Source: Bilabrum cf. latius
Taxonomy: Eukaryota
Length of the DNA: 64,000 bases
Direction: 5' to 3'
Assembly (NCBI GenBank): GCA_965178125.1
Contig: OZ237764.1
Coordinates: 62,001 to 126,000, forward strand
The first letter of the stretch is position 1, and each line of letters starts with the position of its first letter. Position numbers and translations under genes: made by a program. This document shows, one piece after another, positions 12,934 to 64,000 of the stretch. The notes beneath the pieces are model-generated. The model had not been told where the DNA came from and did no database searches. It saw nothing but the letters and a program-made list of their open reading frames with translations.

Positions 12934-14398
12934 ATGGCTGCAGTTGGAGGCTCAGGTGCATCAAGTGCTGCTGTTCCAAGCAGCCCATCGGGGTCAAGCA
13001 GAAAAGCCGCGGAGGGCGGAGTGCACGCCGTCACCCCCTACTCGGACGCACCTTTCGAGATCGACTACGAAAAGACACCTTCCAATGGAAAAGTAGCCCT
13101 GCTTACGGTAAGTGCTTACAGTAAGTGCTAACATGTATCATCTCTGTACTAGCGTTTATAAACGCTTTGCTGCTCAAATCTATGCGGCTCAATCTGTCGG
13201 CACCCGGTCGGTTTCGCGAGCTCATGTGCGTTGGATTTTACGCACGCGACGTGATCTGAACCAAAGAGGATTCACTCAAGTGCAATTAAAATGACTGTTA
13301 CGTTAAGTTGTAAGATTCGGTGCGATCGCCTTTTGGTTTTCTTTGCAGGGCGTTACTGGCCAGGACGGCTCGTACCTCGCTGAGTTCCTTCTATCAAAGG
13401 GCTACGAGGTGCATGGAATCATCAGGCGCTCCTCTAGCTTCAACACGGCTCGTATCGAGCATTTGTACCGTGACCAGCACGACAGGACCCGTTTCTTCAT
13501 GCACTACGGGGATTTGACGGACAGCAGCAACTTGACCTCCATCGTCGCCAAGACAAAGCCCCACGAGATCTACAACCTCGCTGCTCAGAGTCACGTGAAA
13601 GTCAGTTTCGAGATGAGCGAGTACACCGCGGACGTAGACGGTCTCGGGACGCTCCGCCTGCTGAACGCCATCCGCACGGCCGGGCTGGAGAAGCACTGTA
13701 AGTTCTACTAGGCCTCGACAAGTGAGCTGTACGGCAAGGTGCGGGAGACGCCCCAGAAAGAGACCACCCCCTTCTATCCCCGCTCCCCTTACGCGGTGGC
13801 CAAGCAGTACGCCTTCTGGATGTGCATCAATTACAGGGAGGCCTACGGCATGTTCGCAGCGAACGGGATCTTGTTCAACCACGAGGGCCCACGGAGGGGG
13901 CCCTCCTTCGTGACACGCAAGATCACCAGGGCCGTGGCGCGCATCCACAGGGGCCTGCAGAAGAACATCTACCTGGGCAACCTGGACGCCAAGCGCGACT
14001 GGGGCAGCGCCCGCGACTACGTGCAGGGCATGTGGCTGATCCTGCAGCAGGACGAGCCCGAGGACTTCGTGCTGGCCACTGGCGAGACGCACACGGTCAG
14101 AGAGTTTGTGGATCTGGCCTTCAAGGAGGTGGGCATCTCGGTGTCCTGGCGGGGCGAGGGAGTGGAGGAGCAGGGCTTCGCGACGATGAAGAACGAGGCC
14201 GGGGAGGACGAGGAGCGGGTGCTTGTCAAGGTGGACCCCAAGTACTTTAGGCCCACAGAGGTGGAGTTGCTGCTGGGAGATGCCAGCAAGGCCAAGGAGA
14301 AGCTCGGGTGGGAGCCCGAGACAACCTTCAGGGCGCTCGTGGGGGAGATGGTGCGGTCGGACCTTGCCCTCGTGGACAAGGGGGATCTGCGGTCGTGA
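12934..14398 (+). CDS. GMD: GDP-mannose 4,6-dehydratase
   Basis: Exon 1 is 12934-13107, intron 13108-13348 (GTAAGT..TTTGCAG), exon 2 13349-14398 ending TGA. Splicing gives [18 protein letters not shown]. Other motifs: [32 protein letters not shown]. One in-frame TAG (13709-13711) sits at the conserved Q of [11 protein letters not shown]. Confidence 0.97.
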
Positions 14399-16771: not shown

Positions 16772-17341
16772 ATGGACGACGATAAGAAACGAAAGAGGTC
16801 CGATCCATTTAACGACACGCTCTGCTCGACAGTTGCGGCCTCGGTCAATGTGCTCGTGCATCTCCTTTCTCATTGATTTCGCAGGCAGGAATCAAACCGA
16901 CGTGCAGCCAAGGAATCACGGTAGCGGAGGAAAGCTAGAACGGAGGAACTGTAGCGCGCTGTAGTATTTGTCACCCGAGAGAACGAGGAGCTACATGAAG
17001 AGAATACCATCCTGGCGGAGACTCTGAAGGCTGCAGCACCGGACTCAGCGGCTCTTGTTGCTCACTTGAAACAAGAGAACGCATCATTGAAAGTCGCATT
17101 GTTTGAGTGCGTGCAAACACTTGCGAGAATAAGCTCGGTGGCACCGGATCTGGTTGCCTCTATCCCTGGGGTGCTGCCTGCCAGAGCAGCTGCAGGTGGG
17201 GCAGCAGCGGAATCTGGGCCAAGCACTGGGTACGCCGGGGGCAGTGCAGGCCCGAGCGCTGCACCGTCGAGCGCATATTCATCCTCTCAGGCCGCAGGAG
17301 CCCAAAGCGGCTCTGCCCCGATGGAGTCAGGAGGCACTTGA
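16772..17341 (+). CDS. bZIP transcription factor
   Basis: Exon 1 is 16772-16797, intron 16798-16884, exon 2 runs to TGA 17339-17341. Spliced protein: MDDDKKRKRQESNRRAAKESR[TAG]RRKARTEEL[TAG]RAVVFVTRENEELHEENTILAE, a basic N-x7-R region followed by a zipper. Confidence 0.85.
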
Positions 17342-23702: not shown

Positions 23703-24850
23703 ATGCTAAGACGGACTGCGGCCACAGCAAGACACAATGTCGTAAAATAGCTACTAGTTACCCCCCTGGGTTGTTAGAGGCGTTGGGCAGGTGAGGCGAT
23801 ACCAATTTCTTGCCACCAATCCAACATCAGCAATCAATCACGGGCTGTAACTTTCGCAATCTCTACATATTCTGCACAGGACACTCCAAGTGGCACAATA
23901 TACGCGTGAGAATCCTGGTGGTGCTGCACCAAGCACAGTTTGATTAGGAACTAGGGTGATGTAGCAATCCATGCCACACGGTCATCTCTACCACGCAGCA
24001 CAAAAAAGCGCACAACGACAGGAGAAAGTCTGCCGTTCTTGAGAAAGCATCCAAGGGCATTACAATTGCAGTTAAGGTAGGAGGATCACCAGATCCCGAT
24101 GATAACGTGGATCTGCACGCCGCAATATAGCGAGCCAAGTCAGTTAATCTACCGAAAGACAAAATTGAAGCAGCAATTAAGCGAGGCGCGGACCATGGAG
24201 CCAGTGGAGGCTCGGACTTGATGGAGTTAGTGTACGAAGGAGTGGCCAAGCACGGTGTGCAGGCTGTAGTGGAGGTCCTGACCGACAGCAAGACCCGAGC
24301 AGCGCAGCAGGTTCGCCTGGTCTTCAAGGAGGCCGGCGGGGAGCTGCAGCCCCCTGGGGCGCTGGATTACAACTTCAAGCACGTGGGCGTGGTGGACGTG
24401 CGCTGCGACAGGGCCCAGCACGAGGAAGCCCTGCTGGAGCTTGCGCTCGGGGCGGGCTGCGAGGATGTGGAGTGGCCTGACGAGGGCACGCTTGCGGCGG
24501 AGGGGGCGGCGGAGGCGGTGGTGGACCACCACTTGCACCACGAGCTGGCGTCGCATGCCGTGGAACCGGAGGAGGGGGATGGGCACGCGGAGTCGGTCTA
24601 GCACTCGATCGGCAAGGACGTGGCACGAGCCATCTGCAGCCGGGCACAGCTGCATGCCGCTGCGAGGGCGTTCCGGAAGGAAGGGGCGCTGCCTGCTGGG
24701 TGCGAGGTGCTGCGTGCTGAGGCGACGAGGCTGCCTCTTACAACGGTTGATTTGGAAGGGGAGCAGGAGTAGGAGGACCTAGCTTCGTTCTTGCATGCGC
24801 TAGAGGACTTGGAGGACGTCTAGCACGTGTACCACAACGTGAGGGGGTGA
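23703..24850 (+). CDS. TACO1: YebC/TACO1-family protein with a probable mitochondrial transit peptide
   Basis: Exons 23703-23790, 23880-23905 and 23999-24850 (TGA). Spliced protein: MLRRTAATAR..WAGHSKWHNIRHKKAHND..PDPDDN..NLPKDKIEAAIKR..YEG..LEDLEDV[TAG]HVYHNV. Confidence 0.9.
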
Positions 24851-24984
24851 GAGGTGGTGACTCGAGGTGTTTGTACAACGCAGCATCTTACCTCTGATTC
24901 GATATCAAGCATAGCATGGTCTAAGATTGTCCCTTCCCCCTCCCTTTGTCCACGAGAACGAGACATGGATCCCCTACGCAGCTA

Positions 24985-27028
24985 TCAATCCTCCTGGTAG
25001 TAGACTCCCGCCCTGTCCTCGGCTCGCTTCAGCGCCTCCAGCATGCGAGCCACGCCGCTCCGCACGGCTGGGTTCACCTGCAAGGTACCTCCACTCGAAG
25101 AGGGCGAGCTCAGCATGGAGCTGTCCGGCAGTTTCCGCCTCAGCTTTGCCCTGCGCCCGGGTGTCAGCGGGGTCTTGGTCTTGGTAGCAGCACCCGCGCC
25201 AGACAACGGCTGCCTCCCAGCCCCTCGTCCCTTCTGTAGGACTGCACCCTTGGCTTCTTTCAGGGCGCGGGAGCCGCCAATGCCCTTGACCTTGCCGCGA
25301 GACGCCCCTACACGAGATGCCCCGCCGATGCGTCCCTCACCGCTGGCCCCTGACTCATCGCCGCTCGTGTCATCCCCCTCCATCTCCACTGCGCATCGGG
25401 GGGAACTCACAGACCCGCCCGCCTTGCCCTTGCTCTTCTTGCCTCGCGGCCTGGAGGCCCTTCCTGTCGCGGTCTTCCGCCGCTTGGGCGGACTCTCGTC
25501 CTCACCTTGCCCCTCCTCGCCCTGCTCTTCCTCCTCCTCGTGACCGCTGGCAGCTCCAGCAGCCTCCATCTCCACCTCCACCTCCACGTCGCTGTCGTCC
25601 ACCTCATCGCGCTTGCGACGCCGGCCCAGACCATTTCTGGTCTTGTTCCCCCCTGCCATTGCCTTGCCTGCCCTGCGCTTGACCCCAGCCTTGGCCTTGC
25701 GACTGGCTGAGGCCCTGGAGCGCGGCTGCCGCTCTCTCACGGTCCGTCTGCGCATGGCTCGGATCTACCTTGGGCTCGGGTGCTCATCCACCTCGTCCTC
25801 GTCTTCGTCAGAGTCGGTGTCAGAGGTAAGATCCATGGCGGCAGCGGATGAGGACGCTGCGCCACTCTTGCTTTTACCCCTTGCCTTGCCCTTGCCGCGG
25901 CCTCCACCGGGAGCCACCGCAGATGATGAGGACGAGGCGGCCGCCGCCGCCCTGCCCGCGCCGCTTTCGTACAGGTAGAACGAGTCCGCGGCATGCGGGG
26001 CCCAGATCTTGAGGAGCTTGTCCACGTCTACGGAGCGCTCGATGGGCAGCGAGCGGGCTGCTTGGAGGAATTTCCCGACTGGCGGTGGGAGTGCTCTGGT
26101 CAGCTCTGACGGGTCTGTCTCGGTCTTGACCCGGACGAGCTCGTCCCTGCTGCCCGCCTATCCCCAAGGGAGGGATCCCCTGCCCCCGATGAGCTCCACC
26201 ATCATGTATGCCACCGCCTCGTAGTCCATGCGCGGGCAGAGGTCCTTGCCCTGGTGCTTGGCCAAGGACAGGTACTTGGCCGTGCCGTCCTCCCCCTCGC
26301 ACGGCTTGAGGCTGCCGTCCATGGCCACAATCTCCGTGCAGGTACCCATGTCAATTGTCACACACACATCCGCGTGGTCAGCGGGGCTGGCGTCCCGGGG
26401 TCGAATCATGAAGTTGTACGGCTTGGTGTCCGAGTACAGCCGATTCTGGGCGTGGATCAGCGATATTCCACGGATGATGTGTACCGCAGCTCGAGCTGCC
26501 ACTGTGAAAGGGAGAGTCCCGCCGTACCGCTCCGCCAGCTCCCACAGGTTGCAGTCCAGCCGCTCCAGCGGGAGGTACCTGAATCCATCCGCTTTGTCGG
26601 TGGAAAAGGCCATCGAAGGCGGCAACCTTGCAAAGAATGGGCTTCTTGGCAACGTCAATTCATACATTTCTCGTTCTACATTCAGGCAGATTCCCTCCAT
26701 GGACCGAGTGGGCTTCTTCGGCTTCTTCGGCTTTTTGCCACTTTTTAGCAGCTTCGGGGGCTCGAGTAGTGGTGCCACCTTGAGGATCCAACGACCCTCC
26801 GGTGCAAATCTATGTGTTGCTGCGAGGTTCTGAAAATAATCCAGACTGGAAAGATGGATTGGAGTGAAACTGCACCACGACTACCCACGACGCGCCAAAG
26901 GGCACCTTTGGAAACTTACATTCGAATACTCTTCCAAACGCGCCACTTCCCAACTCTTTCACTAACTTCCAGCCTCCGAGAGATATTCCTTCCTTGAGTT
27001 CAACCTGCGGCTGCTCAGCTCTCTTCAT
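24985..27028 (-). CDS. Ser/Thr protein kinase, CK1/VRK-like, with a basic/acidic C-terminal tail
   Basis: Exon 1 is 27028-26920 (LGSGAFGRVF), intron 26820-26919. Downstream motifs: WILKVAP, YLPLERL, LYSDTKPYNFM, TIDMG, GTAKYLS, PRMDYE, LPW. TAGs at 26158 and 25765, TGA at 24985. Confidence 0.85.
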
Positions 27029-27170
27029 CGTTGCTGTGGTACCTTGTAGTGCACGGTCCTATTTGCCGACCGTTGCGATCCCCATGCCGTGACGAGTGCG
27101 GATCCTGTCGGAAGCCAAAAAACGCTAGCGATCAAGTAACCACAGGATATTGACGGCAAGAAAGTCAACC

Positions 27171-27993
27171 ATGGGCTCTTATATTAGCTCAGCCATTGGA
27201 GACACTGCTGATGGTCTCATGCTGAAGCAGCAGGACAGGATGAAGGAGATGCAGAATCAGATGGTCCGCAGACAGATGGCGATTGGTGTAGCTTCAGCAC
27301 GAGATTTTGTCAATTGGTTCGGTGCTTTTTATGCCACAATATCACCCATTTTACTGGCTGGGTGAGCCGAGCGGCGTTGCTGTCCGTAGATTGTGAATTC
27401 GAGTGGTCGGACGCGGAGTTTTCCAGTTTCTCCACTTCTCCGCCTTACCTTTCGTTGAGCAGGGCCCTACGGAGCAAAAGTCCGGGCATGATTATACCAA
27501 TCATACCATTAACCTTTGTTCTCGCGTACTAGTACGATGTGAGCAGAGGGAAAGGGAGCCGTTGGCACGGACCTCATGTCAAGCAGACACGAAATCGCTC
27601 GTTGTCGCCATTGGCGGCATAACTATATTCCTCCCAAGCACAAGTACCATGCGACCCAATCATAGTTCATCCTTACAGATGGCGTACAACGGCAAGATGG
27701 TGCGCATTCGCGAGGAGGCCTCCAGGATCCTGCAGTCAGCTGCTGGCAAGCGACTCGGGCTTCCGGACCTGCCGGCGGAGGAGGGGCACGAGCAGCTACA
27801 CGCGGCAGTGCGGGAGGAGGCCAGGCCCTGGGTGGTGCTACCGATGGTAGGAGGCTTTGGCTGGCTCCCGGATGTATCGATCGACGCCGCAGCACAGGAG
27901 AGAGTTGGGGGGAGTGCGGACTCAGAGCAGGACTCCTCGGAGGCTGCCAGCACTAGGCAGGACGTGGAAACTCAGGCAACAGGGCGGCAGTAA
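27171..27993 (+). CDS. PLGRKT: Plasminogen receptor KT (PLGRKT/DUF2368)-like membrane protein
   Basis: Exons 27171-27361, 27463-27538 and 27679-27993, ending in TAA. Protein: MQNQMVRRQMAIGVASARDFVNWFGAFY..IIPIIPLTFVLAY[TAG]YDMAYNGKMVRIREEA, matching the family pattern RQMAMQIA..PIVPLSF..YQYD. Confidence 0.85.
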
Positions 27994-28193: not shown

Positions 28194-31100
28194 ATGTCTC
28201 GTCATGGCAGAAGGGCCAGCAATGCAGCATCAGTTCTTTCCGATGCTCTAGGGGCATTGCAGCTGGGAATGGGTTTATCCGACTCTTCCGGCTCTGTGCA
28301 AAGCTTTGAGTCAAATAATAACGATGCAAGGGATAATCACGGGGCAGTATCACTTGAAATCGGTAGTCCTGCATCGCGGTCGCCCCCATTCAGGGTCGAC
28401 AATCCAGATGGTGGTGCTGGAAGTCCAGGCGGGTCGGAGCCACCGACGGCTAGGTCTAGCCATCAACGGTTCGGGTTTGGAGAAGGCAAAGACATCACTG
28501 ATCAGCCAGACAGTGCAGGAGCAAGCGAGACGCCTGAAGCAGGTGCAAGTGGCCAGCTGGCTGCCGAATCTGCACATAGCCAAGCAAGCGACGTCAGTGA
28601 TGTAATGAAGAAGTTTCGAAACCTGCAGTCCACTAGAGCACTGGGATCAGGAGAACGGCCATCTACAGCGCGCCCATCGGCCTCCAGGAACCGGCGGGCC
28701 TCTGCCCCGAACACCTCGGCAGCCATGAAGGCGCTCGCGATGGCCCGCGCCCGGCCGTCCACCGCCCGAGCCTCCTCCGTGGACATGGAGGCGGTGGCTG
28801 CCAGCAGGTCCTCAGTGGCGGGTGCAAGAGGCAGGGCCCCGTTCTAGCCCGGGCCAGGCTCCTGCGTAGCCTCTGACTCTGGCTCTGGCTCTGGCTCCGA
28901 CTCTGACTCCGACGGTCCCCTCGCCATCCCTGCCTCGCCCAGTCTGGCGAGCGCGATGCGGAGGAGGTCCATCGAGAGCGGGGGCAGCGGAGGACTGGGG
29001 GCGCTGGGAGGGGGCGAAGATGGGAGTGGGAATGGGAGTGGGAGTGCTGCTGCGGGGGTGGGTCGGTTTGGGTGGGCAGAAAGGCAGGGCGGACGCCCCG
29101 GATCTGGAGCCAGCGGGGATGCGGCTGATTCTGGCATGGGCATTGGTGCCGGTGCAGGTGCAGGTGTGGCGGCGGGGCGTCGAAGGTCCAGCGTGGGGGC
29201 AGGTGGAGCAAGTGGTGGCATTACAACTGGTTCCCAGAGGCCTCGCACTGCCTTACAACCCCCACCTTCCGGCGGCACGGGAAGAAGCACCACGGATCTC
29301 AGCCAAACCATGCGACCAGAAGCAATGCTTGAGGCAGCCACTGCTGCACGGGCCCGGCGCATCTCCGGCACCAAGTCGGTTGACTTGAATGCGCGTCGGC
29401 CCTCAACGAGCGCAGGATCGTTTCGGGGCAAAAAAGGGCGGCGCATGTCGCAGGACCTGCTGTTTGGAGGACTGGGTGATTACATGGGGCAGCTGGAGGC
29501 AGAGGCGGAAGAAGAGGATGACGCCAAGGCCAAGGCCAAGCAGGAAGCTGACGCCAAGGCCAAGCAGGAAGCTGACGCCAAGGCCAAGCAGGAAGCTGAC
29601 GCCAAGGCCAAGCAGGAAGCTGACGCCAAGGCCAAGCAGGAAGCTGACGCCAAGGCCAAGCAGGAAGCTGACGCCAAGGCCAAGCAGGAAGCTGACGCCA
29701 AGGCCAAGCAGGAAGCTGAGGCCAAGGCCAAGCAGGAAGCTGACGCCAAGGCCAAGCAGGAAGCTGTCCGAGAGGTAGTTTAGACTGATGCGAGCCAGGA
29801 AGCCGATCCTGCTGACCTTGCTGGTGGCTACCGCCGCACGAAAGAAGCCGGTTTGCTGGCCGTTCGCACCACTCCTGATACTCCCGTGGCAAGTCGCAAA
29901 TCGATTGATCTGAGTGCTGGCTAGGAAGGAGAGCCAATGGCATCGGCTGGGGCACATCAATTGACCCGCGGTGCATCGGGAACAGAATCGAGTGGCGGTG
30001 CTGGCAGCAGCGATACCATTGCTACCTCGCACGCTGCGGGCAGGTCTGACAACTCACGGCACCTCACAGGCGAGACCCCTGGCTAGAGTTCCAGCACACC
30101 GGAGAAGCCGCCTTTGGCCCAGGAGACGACTGGGTCAAAGGCGCAGATGAGGAGGAGGAGATCTTCGTATGAGCGGCAGCGGATGGCCACGGGACACCCG
30201 CTGGCCTCCCTCGTGATCCAGTCACCGTCTCAGGCGACCCCTGGTAGCACGAGCGAGGGATAGAAGCACTTCGGGGGCGGGGATGACGTTCTATCCAGCA
30301 GCAGCAGCGAGGATGAAGAGAAGGAAAAGGATAATGATAGTGACAGTGCAAGCAGTAGAAATGGTGGCGCTGCTGCTGGCAGTGGTAGGGATGGTGGGGG
30401 CGGTGCAGAGTCACCCGGACCTTCTCCGGACACAATTGCTGATGCTAAACATGTGGACCTTAGCGATGGTACAGGCGCGCAGTCAAGCGCAAGTCATGCA
30501 GGAGATGATGCCAGTGGGGCTCCCAATGAAGCGACCGGAAGCAAGGACGGGCACAATGAGGTCGACCTGCACGCCACAGGTATCGAGTCGGAGGCAGATG
30601 ACAGCCATCCAGATCACGCCACAGGTATCGAGTCAGAGGCAGATGACAGCCACAATGGTAGCCCCGAAGCCGACGCATCGGATTCTCAGGCAAAGGAAGG
30701 TACATAGGCCGGCGACGGCCGATCCCGCCGGGCCCGCCGCAACAGCGTGGAGTGGAGCACGATGATGCGCATGCGGGCCATCAACACGCCAAGTTCCACT
30801 CTGGCCGCGCGAGCATCCCAGGTTGTGCACACGTTCCAGGAGGAGGAGGGGGTGGGTGCAGCCAGCGGTGATGCCGGTCGCAGCTCGGCCGACGATGATG
30901 CAGCAGAACCAGGGTAGGGAAGTGGTGCCCCGAGCAGACGCCCCTCTTCCACGCGGTCCTATTGGCAGAGCAAGCGGAGAAGGGCTAGCGCCATTGCGAC
31001 GGAGAGCCAAGGAGTGCATGCGGCTCCGGGCCAGGGTGGATCCCCGGGCCTCGCATCCGGAGCGGGTCTGATGAGTCCAACTGCCGGGATCGCATCGATC

Positions 31101-40113: not shown

Positions 40114-41850
40114 TCATGTCATGGGTGCCATGCCCTTGAGCAAATCCACAGGCCCTCCGATCAATCGGACACCGCTGCCAGCCGCCCCGCCCGGTGCCGG
40201 AGCCCCGTCCTCCTTACCATCCTCCACACTCGTCACATCCAGGATGGAAGGGGCCACCCCTTCCAACGAGCCTCCCCCAGCCCCGGCGGGGGTTGCCTCC
40301 CCCCTGCAGGGGGACTCGAAAATCTCCCTCCTGATCTCGGGCCCCATCTTGGGGTGCAGGTGCCTCTGCAGCAAGTCACGGAGCCTGCCCTTCTGCTCCC
40401 GCGTCAGGTGGGTCTTGTATCTCTGCGCGAAGGACAGCAGTGACTGATGCCATATGACGGGCAGCTGCCCCTGAACTCCCTGGAACCGCATGAAATGGTC
40501 CACGAGGGCATCGATCACCGGCAGCGGCAGAGCGTACTTTTTGTTGACCAGCGCCCGGATGAGGACAGAGTTGGCCGCGAAGTACGGGGCCAGCGCGAGC
40601 TTCATGAGAGCCACGGCGGAGTGCATGGGCGGGATGGAGAACTTGGCCAGCACGGCACCCACCACCCTGGCCTCTAGCAGGGAGCAGTCTCCCGAGGCGG
40701 CAAGGGGCAGGAGGAACCCCTTGAAGAAGGCAGCGGGCTTGTAGAGAGCCTTCCTGAGGGCCTGGAACAGGTGGTAGTTGAGCTTCTTGTTCTCGTGCAC
40801 GTCCTACCTGAAGGCCGGCAGCAGCACGAGGTTCATGAACCGCTGCGCCCGCACGCTGCCCAGGTTGGAAGCGAAGATTCGGGTGGCTGCAGAGACAGCG
40901 TGCGGCGACCACGTCTCTGGCTCGGTGACGGCCAGCAACTCCTCCCAGTCAGCCAGCCCGGGGAGCATCTTGAATACCTTGGGCAGCTTCCCGCTCTTGT
41001 ACCTCCGCAGGAAGGCCCCCACCTCCTTGTACACGCGCACCACCTTGGAGCCGAACTTGCCGCTGAGGCTGTCCTCCATCAGGTCCCCCCCCTCCCCGCC
41101 CCCCATGCCATCGCCTTCCCCGCCACCTGCCGCCCCCAGTCGCTCCAGCACCATGTCTCCCAGCGTCCTCCTGTCCTCGGCGGACTGCCCCATGAACCTG
41201 CGCACGAGCTCCTCGTCCTCCGCGTCGCCACCCTCCACCGCCATCACCTCCACGAACCCGCCCTCGCTGTCCAGCCTGAGCCCGTCCTCACCACCGAACT
41301 CGAAATCGTCGTCAGCTTCCTCGTCATCACCCCCGAGGACCCCTTCCTCGGCCCGCTGCGCCGCTCGCATCAACGCCTCAGTGGCTGGGCCGTCAGCACC
41401 GTCTCCAGCTCCGCTAGAGACGGGTACGCTCAGCCCACCAGCCATGTCCCTGGTCGCAGCCTCTCGCTCCTCTTCCTCTTCCTGCTACTCCTTTGCCACC
41501 TTCATAATCTTCTCAGATGTCCTCGGATCGATGTACTCTGCCTTTGCTCGCATGGCTGCCTCTGCCTCTTTCTGCTCTTCCTTTCGCGCCCTAGCCTTTG
41601 CGTGCTACTTTTCTTGCTTTTTCAAGAACTCAGTCTGACCGGTGATCTGCGAATACGTGTGTGAGAAGAGAAGCGCTTGATGCTTCCCGGTGCAATGCGC
41701 TGTCGGGGTGCGGTTGCACCTGAGCGGGGTCCGGCATTCCCCACCACGACAGAACAGTATCCGTTGCGCCATACCAATCATGCACCTCATGAGTCAATTG
41801 AAACTTACAGCAGATGCCAAATCAGGTCTCGATCGCGCTTTTTTAGGCAT
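40114..41850 (-). CDS. BYSL: Bystin (Enp1), 40S ribosome biogenesis factor
   Basis: Exon 1 is 41850-41809, intron 41647-41808, and the gene ends at TGA 40114. Motifs: YKSGKLPKVFK, WSPHAVSAATRIFASN, KKLNYHLFQALRKALYKPAAFFKG, NKKYALP, LPVIWHQSLLSFAQRYK. TAGs include 41485 and 40804. Confidence 0.95.
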
Positions 41851-48000: not shown

Positions 48001-50283
48001 GAGGACCGGAGGAATCGGATCCGGTTGCGGCTGCAGAGCATCGGGCGCGGGCGGCCCCTGAGCCTGGAGGAGCTGAACGTGGACGGCTGTTTCGAGGAGC
48101 TGGGCAAGTTCGAGGTGAGGCGGGCCCGCTTCGAGCTGTCGGCGGTGTGCGACAGGGCGAGGGAGGCTTTGGAGCGGCGGCGCATGATGCGGGAGGATTC
48201 GAGGCTGCAGGGGCGCGTCAAGGCCGCGAGACACAGGGCGAGGCGGGCATCTGCTATGGCGGCGGCGGACATGCGCTGGAAGATCCGGAGGGGATCTGTC
48301 ACGGTGCAGGGGGGCAAGGATGCCCAGGAGGCCATGGTCAAAGCGGCGCAGGATGCTGCCTTTAGGGCTGCAGAGGCCATGGGGTCGTTCGGCGGGCCCG
48401 GTGCCGGGCAGCAGGACGAGGAGTGCATGAGCGATTACGAGGACTCAGACACTGATGTGCCTGCCAGCGAGCGGGCGGGTGCACCTGGGAGAACCTACCA
48501 GCTTCGGCTGCGGCCCACTCGCAACGAGCTGGAGACTGTGCTGGAGGAGCCCAGGTGGAGGCAGATGCTGCTGGTCTCGGCCCGCGGGGAGCTGGCGGAG
48601 GCGCCCGTGCGGTTCCTCGCCGCTGCAGCCGAGTACAAGCGGCGGGCCATCAACCCACGAGCGGGGGAGAGCAGGGGCGAGCTGGCTGGGAAGGTGTTCC
48701 ACACGTTTCTGCAGGCCACCACGCGCCTGCCCTCCGTGCCTATGAGTCTGAGGAACAGGGTCAAGGAGCAGGTGCGCATGAACCCGGACCCCGGTGTCTT
48801 TGATGCGGTCGAGAAGATCGTACGAAGGGGCATGCTCAAAGGTACCTTCCGTCGATTCTGGCGGTCCAAGCGCGGCCGTCGGTACCGGAAGGAGCGCATC
48901 CTCGCCCTGGGACTGCCCGAATGGAGCATAGAGCAGATCGGCAAGCTGGCGGGGTCCAAGCGGCTGGATAAGGTGGTCTGGATGCAGGCGGGTGTGCGGG
49001 GGCTGCTGGCCCGCATGCGGGCGAGGGGCGGCTCGCTGCGTGCAGGGGGTCAGTCAGCTAGAGGCAAGGGGGGTCAGTCGCTGCTGGATGTCGCGAGGAG
49101 GGCGGGGAGAGTAGACCTAGAGAGCGGCGCAGATGGGTCTGTGGTAGGGGCAGGGGCAGGGGCAGGGGCCAGCGAGAGCAAAAAGGGTGGGGACGGGTCG
49201 GATAGCGAGGACAGCGCGCTGGAGCCTGACGTGGATGACGTGGTCGGCGGCAAGGGAGGCGGGCTCGGTGGGGCGGCTGGGGCGGCTCTCGGCATGGGAG
49301 GCGGGGGCCAGCAGGACGCGGCAACGGGCGGGGACGTGCTTGGGCAGTGGGGGGCTGGTGCAGCGGCGCTGCCGACTGCTACCGAGCCGGCTGCGGGTGT
49401 GGCGGAGGCTGGTGATGGAGCTGTAAATCAGGAAGCGAGCGATGCGGTGGCCGGCGAGCAGTCAGAATACGGCGGCTCGGATGCGTAGCAAGCGTATGGC
49501 GCTTCCTTGCAGGCGTATGACTGGAACACGGGGGCGTACTACGTTCCTGAGACTGACCAGGACCCCAACATCGTGCAGTACGATGAAGCGGGCATGGCGT
49601 ACACACAGGCGGGGTATTGGGCCGAGGATGGGTACTTCTACGGGTGGGGGCAGCAGCAGCAACAGCAGCAGCAAGCGGGGTATGATCAACAAACGGGCTA
49701 TGGTTACGATCAGCAAGCGGGGTATGATCAACAAGCGGGCTATGGTTACGATCAGCAAGCGGGGTACGATCAACAAGCGGGCTATGGTTACAATCAGCAA
49801 GCGGGGTACGATCAACAAGCGGGCTATGGTTACAATCAGGAAGCGGGGAACGATCAGCAACTTGAAGCGGGGTATGATCAGCAAGGGATCAAAGAACCGA
49901 GCACCGATGCTAGTGCAAGCGTTGCTGCTAGTGGCGAAGTAGGTACTGACAATGATGCCGATGCTAGTACGACTGGCCCTGCTGCCGCCGGGGCTGAAAC
50001 TGGAGCTGCCAGTGATACCGTGGGAGCTGATGCTGATGCCGATGCTGATGCCGATGCCGCCGGTGCTAGGGCTGATACCGCTGGAGCTGCGGCTGGAGCT
50101 GGCGCTACCGAAGATGGGGCCAATGCCTGGCAGTATGATGAGTGGGGTCGTGCCTATAACGACCAGGGCTACTATGACGAGCACGGGCAATTCTGGACCT
50201 GGGAACAGCAGGCCGAGTATGAAGCGCAGATGCAGCTGCAGGGAGAAGGATAGGGTCAGGTGGAGGGATACTAGTAGCCATGA
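42025..50283 (+). CDS. ~2,750-aa protein: ankyrin repeats, B-box-like Zn finger, coiled coils, RGS-like domain, IQ motif and Y/G/Q-rich repeat tail
   Basis: Eight listed ORFs share frame 1, are joined by TAGs and end ..GY[TAG][TAG]P-TGA (50281-50283). Ankyrin: GLTPLMLAV, GMSPLMMAA, GRTALMFAA. B-box-like: CRHC..LCQTC..LH..RHH. RGS-like: LETVLEEP..VRFL..EYK..VFDAVEKIV..TFRRFWRS. IQ: WMQAGVRGLLAR. Confidence 0.8.
49672..49881 (+). repeat. Coding tandem repeat with a 42-bp unit (QAGYDQQAGYGYDQ), about 4 copies plus a degenerate copy
   Basis: Units resembling CAAGCGGGGTAYGATCAACAAGCGGGCTATGGTTACRATCAG are directly visible. Confidence 0.9.
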
Positions 50284-50760: not shown

Positions 50761-53700
50761 ATGCGCCACTGCGGTGTCATTGATCTTCTTTGTATTCTTA
50801 AGCTTAGATGCATCGCGCGCGGTGTCTGCTCCAGTTGACCTGCTCGCGCTGAACGACATCGCCGCAGTTTCGCGGAGATTGCTAGTTCGCGGGGAAGCAG
50901 GAGCAGCGGTCGAGGCGGCAGCCAAGGCATTAATTGACACCAGAGTGTGCTAGACTAGTGTTACTCGAATCAGCCATGCCGGTCGCCCAGGATCTTCGGC
51001 GATCGAGCGCACGAGCGTGGATTGTTCGGGTGCAGGCACCCCGTCCTCCCTGGCGCTCGTCCCTCTGCAGCACCGGTCCGCCGTGTCCTCGCTCCTCTCC
51101 ACTCTAGGGGTCGCGCTGCACAGGGCCCACTAGACAGTGGCCGCTGCACCAATTCTATTGGGCGCCGCTCGATTCTCCGGCTGCAGCTGGCAGGACTGGG
51201 CAAACGCCGGCGATGTTTACCTCATGGCCCTGCGGCCCGGGCCCGCCCTCTCTTGCTTCCGACAGGCCCTGCTGTGCTGCGATCGGGCGCTAGATCAAGG
51301 AAAAGACCCTTCGAGGGTAGAGCCGGGCCGCATGCGCGTGCTGGGCAAGCTGCACAAGGCCAGCGGATGGTCTCTAGACTGGGGGCAGCGGGAGGGGCTG
51401 GGCCTGTCGCCGGATCGGCAGATTGCACGGTACTTGAAGAGGCTGTCTGCCAGCGCCAGGTCCAGGTCCAGGTCCAGGTCGAGGCTCAACCCGGATTCGA
51501 CACTTTGGCTGCTGCTTGGCGTCCGTCGTCACACCAACGACACCGCTGCTGCCCGCGAGGCCAGCGAGCAGCGCGCGGTCGGGGTGATCCTGCAGCAGAC
51601 TGGGGGCTGCACCGGGCTGGCGGCGCTGGGGGAGTGCGCGGGCTGGGGGGCGCCGGACCGCCGCAGCTCCATGCTGGCTATCCGCATGGCCAGGCGGTCT
51701 TGTTCCCTGGGGAACACGCTGTAGGTCGGGCTCCAGGACCGCGCCCTCACCGCCACCGCCGCGCGTGCCTCACCTGCACCTGCACCTGCACCTGTGGCCG
51801 TCCTCCCTCCTCCTGCCGGCTCCTTCCCCAGCTCTGCCGACCTGCATGGGCTCGATCCCGTGCTGGCTGCGGCGGCGGCTCACAGCGAGCCACTGGTGCG
51901 GGACGATGCACTCGTCACGCCGGCTGCCGAGCTGCGGTGCGGTGGGATTGCGAGCACGAACGATCCGACGGGTGCACCTCGAGGAAGTTCTTACGCGCCC
52001 GTGCGGCTGCCACGGTTCGGCCTGCCTTTCGTGCCTCTGCTGGATGGCAGGGGAATAGGCGGGGGCGGGGTCAACACAACCGGGACAAGTTATGGATCTC
52101 GCGGTCGGACCGGGTCATACCCCCGCAACCTGTCCGTTGGGTTTCTGTCGTCCGACTTCGGCGTGCACCCCGTGGCTCAGCTGGTGCGGGGGGTCATCAG
52201 GGACTTGGCGGCTTCTGGGTGTGACGAGTGCAGTGGGCCCCCGTGCGAGAGTGTCGCCCTTCCGCTCAAGCAGGCGGACTCTTGGTGGGGCCGGGCCATT
52301 GCTGAGGAGGCGACAAGGGTCGTCCGGCTGTGGGATGCTGATGAGGAAGCGGATCGAGATGGTGGTGGGGCGGGCGGAGCTGATCCTGCGGCGAGCAGGG
52401 GCGATGGCAAGGGCGATGGCGAGGGCGGGCATCACCCGAGCAGTGCCTGGCAGCAGGTGCAGCGCATTGCAGGGGAGGCAATCGACGTGCTGATAGAACT
52501 CAACGGACACACGATGGGCAGCGGGCTTTCTCTACTGGCGGCTCGGCTGGCGCCTGTGCAGGCCACCTGGCTGGGCCACTGGCAGTCCACCGGTGGACTG
52601 GACGTGGACTACTTCCTGGCAGATGCGGACACAGCCCCCCCTGACGTGCTCGTCACACCATCGGGCCGCGGAATCACCGAGGGTCTGGTGCTGCTGCCGC
52701 TGCCCTCACTCTTCAACGACTACGCCTCCGCACAGAGGCATGTCGCGCTGCGTGCGGGTGCATTGCATGCAGGTGCGCAATGGCGCGGAGCCAGCAGCCA
52801 CTCGGATCCTCTGGGCATTGCCTGCCGATTGCAGCTGAGGCGCAGTGAATCGCGGGGCGTAGGTGTGTTGGCGTCGGCATCGGCATCGCGCGGCGATGTG
52901 CGAGGTCTGGACGAGGCGTGGAGGGAGGGCAGGTGGGCGGCGCTGGCCGAGCTTTTGGCTCCGGATGGGACTGGGACCGGGTACATGCAGCCCTAGGGCT
53001 AGGGCTAGGGCTAGTCATTGCCACAGCCAGTCGCTGGGGGCCAGATGCCGCTGGGACTCAGGCTCGGTGTGGAGTGGGCGCTCCGGTCGCAAGAGCAAGA
53101 GCAAGACGGAGAGGGGGGCTATTACGGCGCAGATGATGGCCCGTCTGAAACCGATGGCCGCTCTCCTGCTCCACATCCCTGGGTGGTGCTGGCAACATTC
53201 TGCGGGTTCGGCAAGTGGACCCCTGCCGTGGTGGACGCATGGGCGGCGCTGCTGCGGTTGCAACCTAGATCCGTGCTGTGGGTGCCCCGGCACGCGGGCT
53301 GGGAGGAGGCGGGGCCCCGTGCCAGAGCCGAGCTGGAGGCGCGCGGGGTGGCGGGGCACCGCCTGCTGCTGGTCCCCAAGGCTGCGTGGCTGCAGCACAT
53401 CGAGGCCAAGGGAGGAGCCACCGACCTCGCGCTGGACACGGCGGCCAAGAACGGACACACGAGCTCGCTGGATGCGCTGTGGGGAGGGGTTCCACTCGTC
53501 ACATTGCGGGGGCAAGGCATGGCCCAGCGGCTGGCCGGCAGTATGGTAGACAACGCTGTCCCGTGGCCTAGTTCGACTGGGCTGGGAACTCGGCCGTTGG
53601 CAGATCGAGGAGGACGAGGAAGTGGAAGGGGGGACGGGAGCGGCATGCAGGTTGCGTCTGCCCCTGGCAAGCTCACGGGGTCCTCCCTGCCCGTCTCCTC

Positions 53701-57384: not shown

Positions 57385-60300
57385 TCACTCTTCCCCGGGA
57401 GCGTCACCACCTGCCGAAGCTACCTCCTGCCCTCGCCGGCGCCGCAACCCTTCATCATCACCTGCCTCCCCGCCCCCAGCGCCATTCCTTTCCTCACCGT
57501 CCACTGCACCCTCCCCAACCCCCCCACCCCCTTCCTAGGTCTCCCGCTCCGCCGCCGCTGCCGCCATTGCCTCCACCTCTGCCCTCCGCAGTGCATCCAC
57601 GGCCGCGGGCTCGCCAGGGAACGGCAGGCCCCGCCTCAGTCGGGCCAGCACCCGCGGGGGCAGCTGCTCTGGTGCCCTCCAGAATGGCAGCAGCGACAAG
57701 AAGAGAGAGGACACGAAGAGCCACGAGTCCCACAGCGGATGGAAGCCGGGCGGCCGCTGCCTCAGCCGCACCGCCGCTCTGTGCTCCGCCTCTCTCCTCC
57801 TCATCGCCGCCTCCTCCTCCCCTTCTCCTGGCTGCCCGCCTCCCTCTCCTCCCCCCTGCCCCGCCCCTGCAGCACCATTGCCGTTCCCTGCCGCCGCATC
57901 CTGCCCTCCCCGGCAGCAGGAGCAGCAGCAGCAGCAGCACCTCCTCATGCAGCACGGACCCAGGCACTCCCCCACGGCCTTCAACGCGCCCGAGTAGGCC
58001 AAGTACAGCACCACGCTCATCACCGTCACAGTCCAGAATCTGGTGCTGGGCGCACCTTGCGCAAACACGAACCACATGATGCCCACCCGCAGCAGCAGCC
58101 CCAGCTACACGAAGCGAAGCAGCCCGCCCTGCTGCTGCTGCAGCTGCTGCTGCTACTGCTGCTCGCCAGCCTCCCCATCCTCACCCTCGTCCCCATTCTC
58201 ATCCTCTGCATCTTCTTCCTCGTCTGCATCGCTCCCGTCATCCTCAACACCTTCACCTTCACCTGCACCTTGCTCAGTTCCTCTCCCAGCATCCTGCTCT
58301 GACGCATCATCGCCTGGGCTGCTTCCTGCCCTGTGTTCGCCACCACTCCCGCTCGGCTCCACCTTCCTCGTCTAGCCTAGCCCAGCCGATCCCTCCTCCG
58401 ATGCAGGCGCACTGGCCACTACTCTGTTTGTCTCTTGGCTGAAACTGACGGACTCGACCCTGGGTCGGCCACCGCCTCCTCTCAAGCTAGTTCCCTCGTC
58501 GGCCGCACCTTCCCCTTCCCCCAACCCTTCCCCGTTGCCCCCGGCAGAGCCAGCGTCCTTGTCGTTGTCGCTGTCGCTGTCGCTTCCCGAGCTCGAGTCA
58601 GAGTCGGAGTCGGAGTCGGAATCCGAGTCAGTATCCGAATCTGAGTCAGTGTCGGTGTCACCCGAAACCTCCGATACCCTCCCTTCGATGTGCCGCTCCA
58701 CCCCCGCGGGTACCGCTCTCACCCCCATTCCCCCGAGAGAGGAGAGGAGAGGGGAGCTGGCAGGCACCCTCAACGGCGTCCTAGGGCTGGCCGAGTCACC
58801 AGCAACCCCTCGCTCCACGTCAACCAAGCCCGCGCTGTGGCCCGCCCCCGCCCCCGCGTACGTGGATGGGCCCATGGACAGCGATCGGACCACGGCAGTG
58901 GGAGGCATCAGACCCGAGCTGGCGCCTGGGCTCAGCAGCCCAGCGGAGTGTGCCCCCGGCCCCATCTGGGTCAGGGCAGCAGTGCCGGGGTCCAGAGCAC
59001 CCATGGGAGACACGCCCGAACTCGCGCGTGCCCTGGCCTGTGGGGGCGAGGGCACGCCGACTGCCTGCTCCAGCGCGGAAGCCTGCAGCAGCAGGTGGTC
59101 TGCCTGCGCCCTCAGCTGCTGGGCCCGCTGGGCGGCAGCCAGCTGCAGGGGCGAGAACCGCTACGCTGCATGTCCGTTGAGTTCTGCGAGCCCGCCGAGT
59201 CCAGCGGCTGCATCCTAGGCAGGGGTGGAAGGGGCACTCCTGGACTCGCCGGATTGGCCACCCACAGGTAGGCCGGTAACCATCACCGACACCGGCCGCA
59301 GCGGAGACTACGTGGGAGTGGAAGCCGCGTGCATCCGAGCCGGGGGCACCTGCGGGCCATGCGAGGGCGAGAGGGGGGGCCTCGAGGAACTGGGGGGTGC
59401 CGCCGCGTCTGAGACTGACCTGCGCTTTCTGTTGGCAAGGTGCTGCTCTGGGCTACCGATAGGCCCCGCGTATCCTGCAGGTCCCGTCTGATTTCTCTCG
59501 ATCCCCATCGTGGCTCCCAGAGCGCGGATGCGCTGAGCAGCTGCGGCTCCTGCCGGCATGGACTTGCGACCGCCCTGCTGCCTCCTCGCGGCATGTGGGT
59601 GCGGCCTGGAGCGCGGTCTCTCGTGCGCGGGCAGCGTGGCTGCGTCCCCTTCCCCCGATGAGCCGGACACCCAGGAGAGGCCGGCCGTCTCTGGCGTGGC
59701 ACCACCTCCGTCCAGGTCGCCAGAGTCGGGCTGGCTAGCATCTGCGGGCATTTGCACGCGCTGCGGGGGAGACATGGAAGCGTTCAGCCCCCGCATGGCA
59801 GTCAGCAAGCCGCCCTCCTCGTGGCCAGTATTGCGGTGGTGAGGGTGGTGCGAGCCAGGGGCGAGGGGCTGGCTCGCGGCTGGAAGGGGCTGCTAGGCCG
59901 AGTTGTGCTCGTGTCCGTGGTCATTTGCGCTGCCAGTGGGCGCCCCTCGCACCGCCACAGCCGCCCTGCCCATCTGCGGGGACCGCAGCGCGATGGGAGA
60001 CCCAATGTCGTCGCCGGGGTGTCCCCTTGTGCCGGCTCCTGTCTGCCCACCGGTCCCATGCTGCCCGTACTGAGTTGGCATGGTAAGGAAAGACGTGCTG
60101 GATCGCTCGCTGCCGATGCTGTGCGCATCCACAGTGTTGAAATGGCCTGGGTGCACCGCTGGAGCCGCAACATGCATGTGGGCAGGGCTACCAGCAAATC
60201 CAGTGGGCGCCGCTCGGACCGCCACAGCCGCCCTGCCCATCTGCGGGGACCGCAGCGCGATGGGAGACCCAATGTCGTCGCCGGGGTGTCCCCTTGTGCG

Positions 60301-62480: not shown

Positions 62481-64000
62481 ATGGAAATGAGCCACAACGA
62501 GCTGAGAGAACTCCAAAACGGTGAGCTGCCCGTTGTCTACTCCCAACTCCGACTCATTCGTTTGGATGGCCTAATACAGCGGAACATAAATGGTAGAATA
62601 GATTTCTTAGTTAGGCATTGAGGCAACGATTGGCGCCAAGTTGTCGCATAGTTAGTGGTCCGTGGAACTGGGTGTTTCCGTTCGGTTGCAGTACGCTCTT
62701 CTTTCGCAGGCTTCGTGGGGTACAAGGTGAACAAGAAAGGAAACTACAGCAAAGTGAGAAAAAATTGTCTAGTATACTAGTCAGAGCTTCGCCTGCCTTG
62801 CATTTAATACCTCTAAGCTCCACACAACACGGCGACGCAGAAAGCTGTGTTTTTTACATCTGACGGTTGCAAGCTGGGCTGGAAGCCATCTAAGAACGCA
62901 ACAGAGTACAGTGAGTGGACATGCACGAGTCTATTTTGTAGCTATCCGTACTCAGAGGTTCCACCTCGATGGTGTCCCGCTTCCCTACCCGCAGTCCCGC
63001 TGCAAGAGATCGAGCATGTCGCCGGGATCACACACGATGATAGCTGGCAGTCCTTCCTGGGAACGTATGCAGCAACTCTGCGGAAGCAGCTCAGCACGGA
63101 TCGTGCTGTTGATACTCCCGACTCCACGGTGGTGGAGCTAGAGAAACTGGGAGGAGCAAAGGGCGGCTGGGCCTCGTGGGCCGCCAGAGTGTTCCGCCTC
63201 CGCGGCAGGGAGCTCGCCTACCACAAAGGGTCCCTGGACCAGCCCATGGCAGGCACCATAGACGTCCCACTTGGCACAGGGGTGGAGACGCGCGGGGAGG
63301 GCCCCGTCCACATGCTGCTGCGGCCCCCGGCCCAGGCGGAGGGCCCCGTCAGGGAGCTGAGGTCCAGCGACACTGCTGCGGTGGCCAGGCTGAGCGCAGC
63401 GATCCGGACCTCGTGCAGTGTGCCGCTGCACCGATGCCTGCAGCAGGCTGCATCCATTGCGGAGGGCAGGGGCATGGAGCCAGATCGAGGAGGAGGTGCA
63501 CCTGGCTCTGGCTCTGGGTCGTCGCTTGAAGCCCGCGCGACGAGGGCGGGCACTGGCACCGGCATCAGTGCACTTGGTGCTGCCGCCAGCCGCTGCATAG
63601 GCGAAGCGGCCGGGAGCACACCCCGGGAAGCAGACCGGTCGGAGGACTTTGCCAGCCTCATGGGCCGACGGGCGATCACAATCGTCACACGCCGCCGGTC
63701 TCTCCGTCTGGTGGCCAGCAGCCCTGCCAACGCCTCCAGGCTGCTGTTCCTGCTGTCCTCGCACCTCATGCAGAGAGAGCAAGGAGGGGCCACTGGATCC
63801 GCCGGGAGAGGTCCCACTGTGCCTGGCCTGGATGCCGTGCAGCGGGCCTCTGCAGTGCTGGCGCGGCCCCTGGAGAGCGAGCCACCGATCAGGGCCTCGG
63901 CTGCGGGGGTGCTCCTGAGGGCGGGGCGGGCATGGGAGGCGCTGGGGCTGGTGTGCACCCGCGGCACGGAGGGATGCCCCGCCTGCATGGAGGTGCGGGG
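62481..64000 (+). CDS. PH-domain protein (3' partial), split PH with a nested second PH
   Basis: Predicted exons 62481-62520, 62710-62753, 62841-62910 and 62995->64000, with all phases consistent. Protein: ELQNGFVGYKVNKKGNYSKKAVFFTSDGCKLGWKPSK..IPLQEIEHV, then LEKLGGAKGGWASWAARVFRLRGRELAYHK..AGTIDV, then AITIVTRRRSLRLVASSPANASRLL. Open to the window end. Confidence 0.7.

Follow-up and report, generated by a model that had tools for sequence, protein, structure and literature searches.

Genes throughout the window, i.e., the whole 64-kilobase (kb) stretch of DNA from position 62,001 to 126,000 of contig OZ237764.1, carry in-frame TAG codons, and we infer that cytoplasmic ribosomes very probably read UAG as glutamine (Gln), with UGA as the main terminator and UAA as a rare, retained one, presumably on the basis of changes in tRNA and in the release factor eRF1. 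The DNA is nuclear and comes from a GC-rich, single-celled eukaryote that has spliceosomal introns and encodes a factor of mitochondrial translation. The content of guanine plus cytosine (G+C) of the window is about 64% overall and 0.555–0.718 across 2-kb windows, and genes are found on both strands in a Pfam survey. In nearly all genes, highly conserved and well-covered ones included, UAG serves as a regular codon for Gln. A preliminary description had placed TAG codons at 24821 in the gene for TACO1/YebC, at 27530 in that for DUF2368/PLGRKT, at 41485 (minus strand) in that for bystin and at 16922 in that for a bZIP factor, as well as a TAA at 27991 at the end of the PLGRKT gene, and all five coordinates are correct.

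UAG in reading frames and conserved columns

With the standard set of stops, the longest open reading frame (ORF) in the six frames spans 711 codons and none reaches 1000. Making TAG alone a sense codon yields a longest ORF of 2758 codons and seven ORFs that reach 1000. The same treatment of TAA changes nothing, the longest ORF still being 711 codons, and that of TGA gives a longest ORF of 1150 codons, which is the only one of 1000 or more. In-frame occurrences were counted in the seven largest ORFs, which total 12,814 codons, and compared with the two shifted frames. TGA occurs 0 times in frame vs 167 and 225 times off frame, and TAA 0 times vs 15 and 27 times, whereas TAG occurs 83 times in frame vs 80 and 83 times off frame, i.e., it is not avoided. 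In 19 gene ORFs comprising 18,399 codons, 113 in-frame TAGs are counted, a number to be taken as approximate, since parts of some ORFs precede the true start or belong to unrecognized introns. TAG accounts for about 12% of the 909 Gln codons in these ORFs, the others being CAG (644) and CAA (152). TGA ends 18 of the 19 ORFs and TAA ends one; the TGA of TACO1 lies two residues beyond the last position of its Pfam profile, and the TGA of GDP-mannose 4,6-dehydratase (GMD) lies 7 residues beyond the end of the alignment to E. coli GMD.

That UAG means Gln is as good as shown. The individual TAG codons and runs referred to in the following are listed here in window coordinates, with the evidence used for each.

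13709..13711, plus strand: TAG codon in GMD (FY[TAG]ASTSELYG); homologue column, PDB alignments and RNA-like contigs
16922..16924, plus strand: TAG codon in a bZIP basic region (...ESR[TAG]RRK; second TAG at 16952); Pfam bZIP_1 and bZIP_2
24821..24823, plus strand: TAG codon in the DDVQxVY motif of TACO1/YebC; frame ...LEDLEDV[TAG]HVYHNVRG
41485..41487, minus strand: TAG codon in bystin (AKE[TAG]QEE); homologue column
52994..53014, plus strand: (TAG GGC)x3 TAG run, read QGQGQGQ, in a GT41-like gene; coding microsatellite built on TAG
58153..58155, minus strand: TAG codon in a poly-Gln run (EQQ[TAG]QQQLQQQQ); reading frame

At the GMD codon the aligned column holds Q in 119 of 119 homologues, and in both of the displayed PDB alignments. 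The bystin codon, which the preliminary description had named as agreeing with a Gln reading, lies within the sequence ...VAKE[TAG]QEEE, and Q is found in all 113 homologues that have a residue there, the other six of the 119 being gaps; human bystin has Q and the Chaetomium protein has L at this position. Likewise, the assignment of TAG 24821 to a conserved Gln of TACO1 is borne out: the codon is in frame, and of the 149 representatives 101 have Q and 11 a gap in its column (101 of 138 residues), N and D following with 6 each; three of four displayed solved YebC structures have Q as well, the fourth having V. Among the remaining TAGs of these two genes, the one at 41605 in bystin falls in a poorly aligned N-terminus (R 72, K 24), and the one at 24599 in TACO1 falls within an insertion that is absent from all homologues.

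As a check that needs no alignment, segments were scanned against Pfam with every one of the 20 residues in turn substituted for TAG, which gave six informative segments holding eight TAGs. The summed score is 501.2 bits for Q, followed by E (492.9), H (491.3), K (490.7), D (489.3), S (486.8) and L (480.7); with bZIP_2 in place of bZIP_1 the sums are 502.3 for Q and 496.4 for E. Q is the single best reading in four of the six segments, i.e., GMD (172.5 bits), the C-terminus of TACO1 (39.4 bits, the next residue reaching 36.8), exon 2 of PLGRKT and bZIP_1. The proposal that SR[TAG]RRK of the bZIP factor also contains Gln holds in part: the frame and the bZIP_1 score (Q 38.1, E 37.0) agree with it, while bZIP_2 prefers E (40.5, Q 39.2), and the site is weakly informative.

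The surroundings of TAG point in the same direction. The residue most enriched beside it is Q (1.74-fold; E 1.01-fold), and the run in the GT41-like gene, which reads CCC TAG GGC TAG GGC TAG GGC TAG, is a perfect hexamer repeat.

TAG is also present in contigs that resemble spliced RNA. The runs X5, X6 and X7, which come from two studies (X5 and X6 from one of them) and are not registered as RNA, were taken as RNA-bearing solely from the joints in their contigs, and X1 is a DNA-like run that is collinear with the window and has no splice joints. In contigs of X5, X6 and X7, short segments bounded by GT..AG or CT..AC are missing, and 0 letters differ from the window; the joints define introns of 87–241 bases. 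The TAGs at 13709, 24128 and 27530 remain TAG in spliced contigs, and GMD exon 2, which contains TAG 13709, is covered by high-depth contigs in all three runs with 0 differences. Since the spliced, RNA-like contigs carry TAG unchanged, RNA editing of UAG is not the explanation.

The TACO1 gene, modeled as 23703–23790 + 23880–23905 + 23999–24850, contains six in-frame TAGs.

23703..23790, plus strand: TACO1 exon 1, ATG at 23703, TAG at 23748 and 23775; frame, and joint 23787>23877 in X5, X6 and X7 (GT..AG, cut +3)
23880..23905, plus strand: TACO1 exon 2, 26 bases, encoding the GHSKWHNIR motif of the family N-terminus; joints 23787>23877 and 23905>23999 in X5, X6 and X7
23999..24850, plus strand: TACO1 exon 3, TGA at 24848–24850, TAG at 24128, 24599, 24770 and 24821; Pfam and frame

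Exon 3 matches PF20772 with 81.3 bits (cut-off 36) and PF01709 with 122.9 bits (cut-off 27), both above the threshold, and seven relatives in the PDB are found with E-values from 7.4e-32 to 2e-16. The N-terminus is presequence-like (MLRRTAATARH...) and includes the TAGs at 23748 and 23775, so that a probable peptide for targeting to mitochondria likewise makes use of TAG. A representative of a public protein set (P0241, 126 residues, 99% identical) corresponds to window positions 24221–24598, i.e., from an internal Met up to the residue before TAG 24599; standard-code calling therefore already truncates proteins of this organism in public data. Annotation of the genome needs TAG as Gln, as gene callers that use the standard code cut proteins at TAG.

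Probable termination at UAA and alternative readings

The status of UAA is tied to the PLGRKT gene, whose model is 27171–27361 + 27463–27538 + 27679–27993.

27171..27361, plus strand: PLGRKT exon 1, ATG at 27171; Pfam PF10166 positions 26–68, 40.7 bits; intron 27362–27462 from a joint in X5 and X6
27463..27538, plus strand: PLGRKT exon 2, 76 bases, TAG at 27530–27532; GT..AG joints 27361>27463 and 27538>27679 in X5 and X6
27679..27993, plus strand: PLGRKT exon 3, TAA at 27991–27993; PF10166 positions 97–124, weak match (13.4 bits, E 0.062)

Both joints are seen in X5 and X6 and are absent from X1. Exon 2 matches PF10166 positions 73–96 with 30.2 bits when TAG is read as Q (cut-off 25), and the three exons, scanned one by one, are collinear on the profile, so the gene is a member of the DUF2368/PLGRKT family. 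A homologue search with exon 1, in which longer proteins were allowed, found no family members, and the column of TAG 27530 is therefore judged through the Pfam profile alone. The profile prefers Q (30.2 bits, R 28.9, K 28.8), which sustains the proposal that this TAG, within ...FVLAY[TAG]YD of the spliced exon 2, occupies a Gln column; human PLGRKT presumably carries YQYD here.

After splicing, the PLGRKT frame ends at TAA 27991–27993, as had been proposed. At this codon G+C falls from 0.64 in the last 150 bases to 0.48 in the next 150, and compared with exon 3 (G+C 0.66, G+C at third codon positions (GC3) 0.75) the 180 bases after TAA have a G+C of 0.47 and a GC3 of 0.50. G+C also drops after 16 of 17 genes that end at TGA. 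Contig cover beyond TAA 27991 is thin or missing in some runs and is given no weight here. The proposal that UAG is decoded and UAA terminates within a single mRNA agrees with the spliced model, with the lack of in-frame TAA and with the lower G+C beyond the codon. Termination at UAA is probable and well supported, as the economical reading of the frame exclusion taken together with one gene end.

Several observations weigh against the combination of UAG as Gln with UAA as a working stop. With respect to UAA, PLGRKT is the single TAA-ended gene of about 21, and its C-terminal 65–75 residues extend past what the family profile covers, so the gene end is not set by homology. With respect to UAG, besides the approximate nature of the TAG count, three columns are not dominated by Q, i.e., bystin 40804 (D 85, E 15, A 8, Q 6 in 119 homologues), TACO1 24128 (D 43, E 39, Q 26 in 149 representatives) and TACO1 24770 (A 56, I 12, E 10, Q 8 in the same representatives). 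In the Pfam comparison Q is second in the TACO1 N-terminal segment (E 64.8, Q 64.6) and fourth in the bystin 40804 segment (D 157.3, E 157.0, N 156.6, Q 156.4), and the sulfatase and kinase segments have no Pfam match under any of the 20 readings. The columns rich in D and E are variable, and a small opening for Glu remains.

If UAG is Gln and UAA neither a sense codon nor an efficient stop, the end of PLGRKT would be an exception, either mis-modeled because of a 3' intron or subject to read-through. The solitary TAA-ended gene and the missing homology anchor at its C-terminus speak for this reading, and 84 ORFs of at least 60 codons with a TAA end yielded no second such gene; those other than PLGRKT overlap the frames of other genes, lie in introns or have low GC3. 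Nevertheless, we regard it as quite improbable: the drop in G+C at 27991 resembles that at TGA stops, and there is no joint downstream of 27679 among the 15 joints listed from a larger set. Furthermore, eukaryotes use a single eRF1 for all stops, so losing recognition of UAA without reassigning it would be costly. Finally, UAA stays a stop in the rhizarian exLh, in Iotanema spirale and in phyllopharyngean ciliates (PMC5304391, PMC11687900).

A code in which UAA and UAG both mean Gln (NCBI table 6), with UGA as the sole stop, TAA scarce simply through the high G+C and PLGRKT continuing past 27991, is in keeping with the predominance of TGA at ORF ends and with the scarcity of TAA everywhere (306 on both strands vs 797 TAG and 1333 TGA). 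The frame after TAA 27991 also stays open for 203 codons. These 203 codons match no Pfam family, however, and beyond 28176 they overlap the ORF of the next gene in another frame; the low GC3 after TAA given above likewise separates this stretch from exon 3. Were TAA read as Gln, the CAA:CAG ratio of 152:644 would predict about 27 in-frame TAAs for all 19 ORFs combined and about 19 for the seven largest, yet none occurs, ORFs of 2445–2758 codons are continuous without one, and the depletion of TAA in frame is not shared by TAG. Reading through TAA extends just two large ORFs, solely upstream of the first ATG, with one extension entering the 3' region of PLGRKT and the other the promoter side of bystin, and in no case are two coding ORFs joined. 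Clearly, TAA does not encode an amino acid here, and we consider the table 6 reading highly improbable.

More improbable still is an ambiguous UAG, acting as sense inside genes and as a context-dependent terminator at their ends, as in codes of the Condylostoma/Blastocrithidia type. In favor of it, 64 kb is a small sample for such a judgment, and the end of the ankyrin-TPR-RGS gene (...TAC TAG TAG CCA TGA) is also readable as a tandem TAG stop. Yet 0 of the 19 ORFs need TAG as a stop, the conserved C-termini of GMD and TACO1 end at TGA where their families end, TAG in frame is undepleted, and the TAGs in question stand 2–3 codons before TGA in a Q/G/Y-rich tail where QQ fits.

We give next to no weight to TAG encoding another residue (Glu above all), being edited in RNA or representing errors or pseudogene lesions: the acidic columns at bystin 40804 (D or E in 100 of 119) and TACO1 24128 (D or E in 82 of 149) and the marginal lead of E over Q in two Pfam comparisons favor it, but the Gln columns are invariant or dominant (119 of 119, 113 of 113 residues and 101 of 138 residues), the summed Pfam score is higher for Q than for E, Q and not E is enriched beside TAG, spliced RNA-like contigs keep TAG, and as many as 113 sites, spread over 19 genes whose long frames are intact, cannot be lesions.

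Proposed mechanism and relation to known codes

The reading of UAG as Gln with UAA kept as a stop could be accounted for by three changes, which we propose by analogy with published systems. A tRNA-Gln whose anticodon CUA differs by a single base from the CUG that reads CAG would pair with UAG and not with UAA. A glutaminyl-tRNA synthetase would accept this tRNA-Gln(CUA), and the N-domain of eRF1 may no longer hold on to the G of UAG while still binding UAA and UGA. UAA would be kept as a terminator and used seldom, because the genome is GC-rich. PLGRKT would then be the one gene in the window that has both, with UAG decoded in exon 2 and termination at the UAA of exon 3. A code that reassigns UAG but not UAA needs a CUA tRNA, a tolerant synthetase and probably an eRF1 weakened for UAG only (Panek et al. 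2017, PMC5304391), and the change in Iotanema eRF1 is T32G in the GTS motif (PMC5304391). In the 64-kb window no tRNA genes were found, nor was eRF1 found in the Pfam survey.

The code of the window is the known pattern with UAG as Gln and UAA and UGA as stops (NCBI table 15; Iotanema and some ciliates), where for UAA we infer termination as set out above. Iotanema spirale (Metamonada, Fornicata) decodes UAG as Gln and terminates at UAA and UGA (Panek et al. 2017, PMC5304391). As in Iotanema, UAG alone is reassigned here, and to Gln, UAA is probably kept as a terminator, and a tRNA-Gln(CUA) together with a change in the eRF1 N-domain would be expected. Iotanema is anaerobic, is known from its transcriptome and uses UAA as its primary stop, whereas the organism studied here has TACO1, is GC-rich and ends 18 of 19 ORFs with TGA.

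A second group of hosts is found among ciliates. UAG is Gln and UAA is not reassigned in Hartmannula sinica, Trochilia petrani and Protocruzia tuzeti, with independent origins (McGowan et al. 2024, PMC11687900), and UAA is the main stop in these three as well as in Iotanema (PMC5304391, PMC11687900). The window shares with the three ciliates the assignment of UAG to Gln and the unreassigned UAA, and differs from them in preferring UGA. The 64-kb, multigene, GC-rich stretch with introns described here also seems unlike phyllopharyngean macronuclear DNA.

Codes in which both UAA and UAG (UAR) mean Gln (NCBI table 6) occur in many ciliates, in ulvophycean green algae, in hexamitids and oxymonads, and in Amoeboaphelidium protococcarum (PMC2984419, PMC6299283, PMC5304391, PMC11687900). 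Common to these codes and the one described here are a nuclear stop-to-Gln reassignment of UAG and enrichment of the new codon in Q-rich tracts. They differ in that UAA is sense too in UAR codes, whereas in-frame TAA is 0 here vs about 27 expected. UAG is Leu in the rhizarian exLh and in a phyllopharyngean clade from TARA, and Ser in Scotinosphaera (PMC5304391, PMC11687900). UAG is decoupled from UAA in these three cases as it is here, but the summed Pfam scores of 480.7 for Leu and 486.8 for Ser vs 501.2 for Gln set the window apart from them.

The organism fits none of the described hosts of a code with UAG alone as Gln and looks like a new lineage. A description of a GC-rich, non-ciliate protist with UAG as Gln was not found in the literature, coverage of which was incomplete, and the 2025 runs may have a paper of their own. 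Tentatively, and with our doubts slightly outweighing our confidence, we suggest that this is an undescribed lineage, neither ciliate nor metamonad, that independently reassigned UAG to Gln with UAA kept, and that it is the first GC-rich case with UGA as the working terminator. To our knowledge, nuclear codes that split UAG from UAA were unknown until 2017 and are still confined to a handful of lineages. Each independent case tests whether a CUA tRNA and a small eRF1 change are sufficient, and a GC-rich, UGA-preferring case, if true, would mean a route that is independent of AT pressure and of UAA as the preferred stop.

Lineage and further contents of the window

The affinities of the organism were assessed with the bystin and GMD proteins. 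The best named bystin matches are early-diverging fungi and stramenopiles with 41–52% identity, and the best named GMD matches are stramenopiles, haptophytes and one cryptophyte (Rhodomonas) with 70–72%; no ciliate is among the best matches of either protein. In a quick bystin tree, built from one gene and the best matches only and with no ciliate among its rows, the window protein joins environmental sequences and a single dinoflagellate (Symbiodinium) in a group that excludes Fungi and stramenopiles (97 in the SH-like approximate likelihood ratio test, SH-aLRT).

The window encodes TACO1, a mitochondrial translation factor, and fornicates are not known to possess a mitochondrial genome. An affinity with fornicates is therefore improbable, and the organism is probably not a fornicate. 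An aphelid, and Amoeboaphelidium in particular, was rejected as a candidate, given the code with UAR as Gln that is reported for this genus, the G+C of 40% in its genomes (PMC10608142) vs about 64% here and the lack of any aphelid among the best 120 bystin matches.

Close relatives of the sequence itself are present in public assemblies, which contain a bystin 98% identical to that of the window (P0001; window 40117–41793), a GMD 99% identical (P0121; window 13349–14395) and another GMD 89% identical (P0123). The next bystins after the 98% one are environmental sequences with 46–57% identity. Run X1 also carries contigs 90–99% alike to the window. There seems to be another haplotype, another strain or a closely related species. 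A metagenome scan with the GMD protein gave 80 loci, the best of which is 68% identical, and found no close relative and no extra genes of the organism or its kin.

The gene families identified in the Pfam survey of the window are the following.

Part 1: GDP-mannose 4,6-dehydratase (GMD), 2OG-Fe(II) oxygenase, bZIP factor, endo/exonuclease-phosphatase protein
Part 2: CRAL-TRIO/RhoGAP protein, TACO1/YebC, kinase-like protein, DUF2368/PLGRKT
Part 3: LRR protein, bystin, ankyrin-TPR-RGS giant, GT41-like transferase, sulfatase

In addition, several long low-complexity proteins match no Pfam family. The ankyrin-TPR-RGS gene, with 2758 codons, has its end at 50251–50283, where two TAGs stand two and three codons before the stop in the Q/G/Y-rich tail mentioned above. 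At 62817–63998, a TAG-free open frame of 394 codons continues off the end of the window; it is PH-domain-like by weak Atlas matches (0.86 at best) and has no Pfam match. The GMD and oxygenase genes are convergent and at most about 350 bases apart, and their 3' ends may overlap: one X5 contig (13348–15811) leads from GMD exon 2 on the plus strand directly into the 3' portion of the minus-strand oxygenase gene. Two giant low-complexity genes contain in-frame repeats, i.e., a tandem repeat at 29529–29766 with 9.9 copies of a 24-base unit (AKAKQEAD repeats) in one, and repeats at 49669–49885 with 42- and 84-base units that encode Q/A/G/Y/D in the other.

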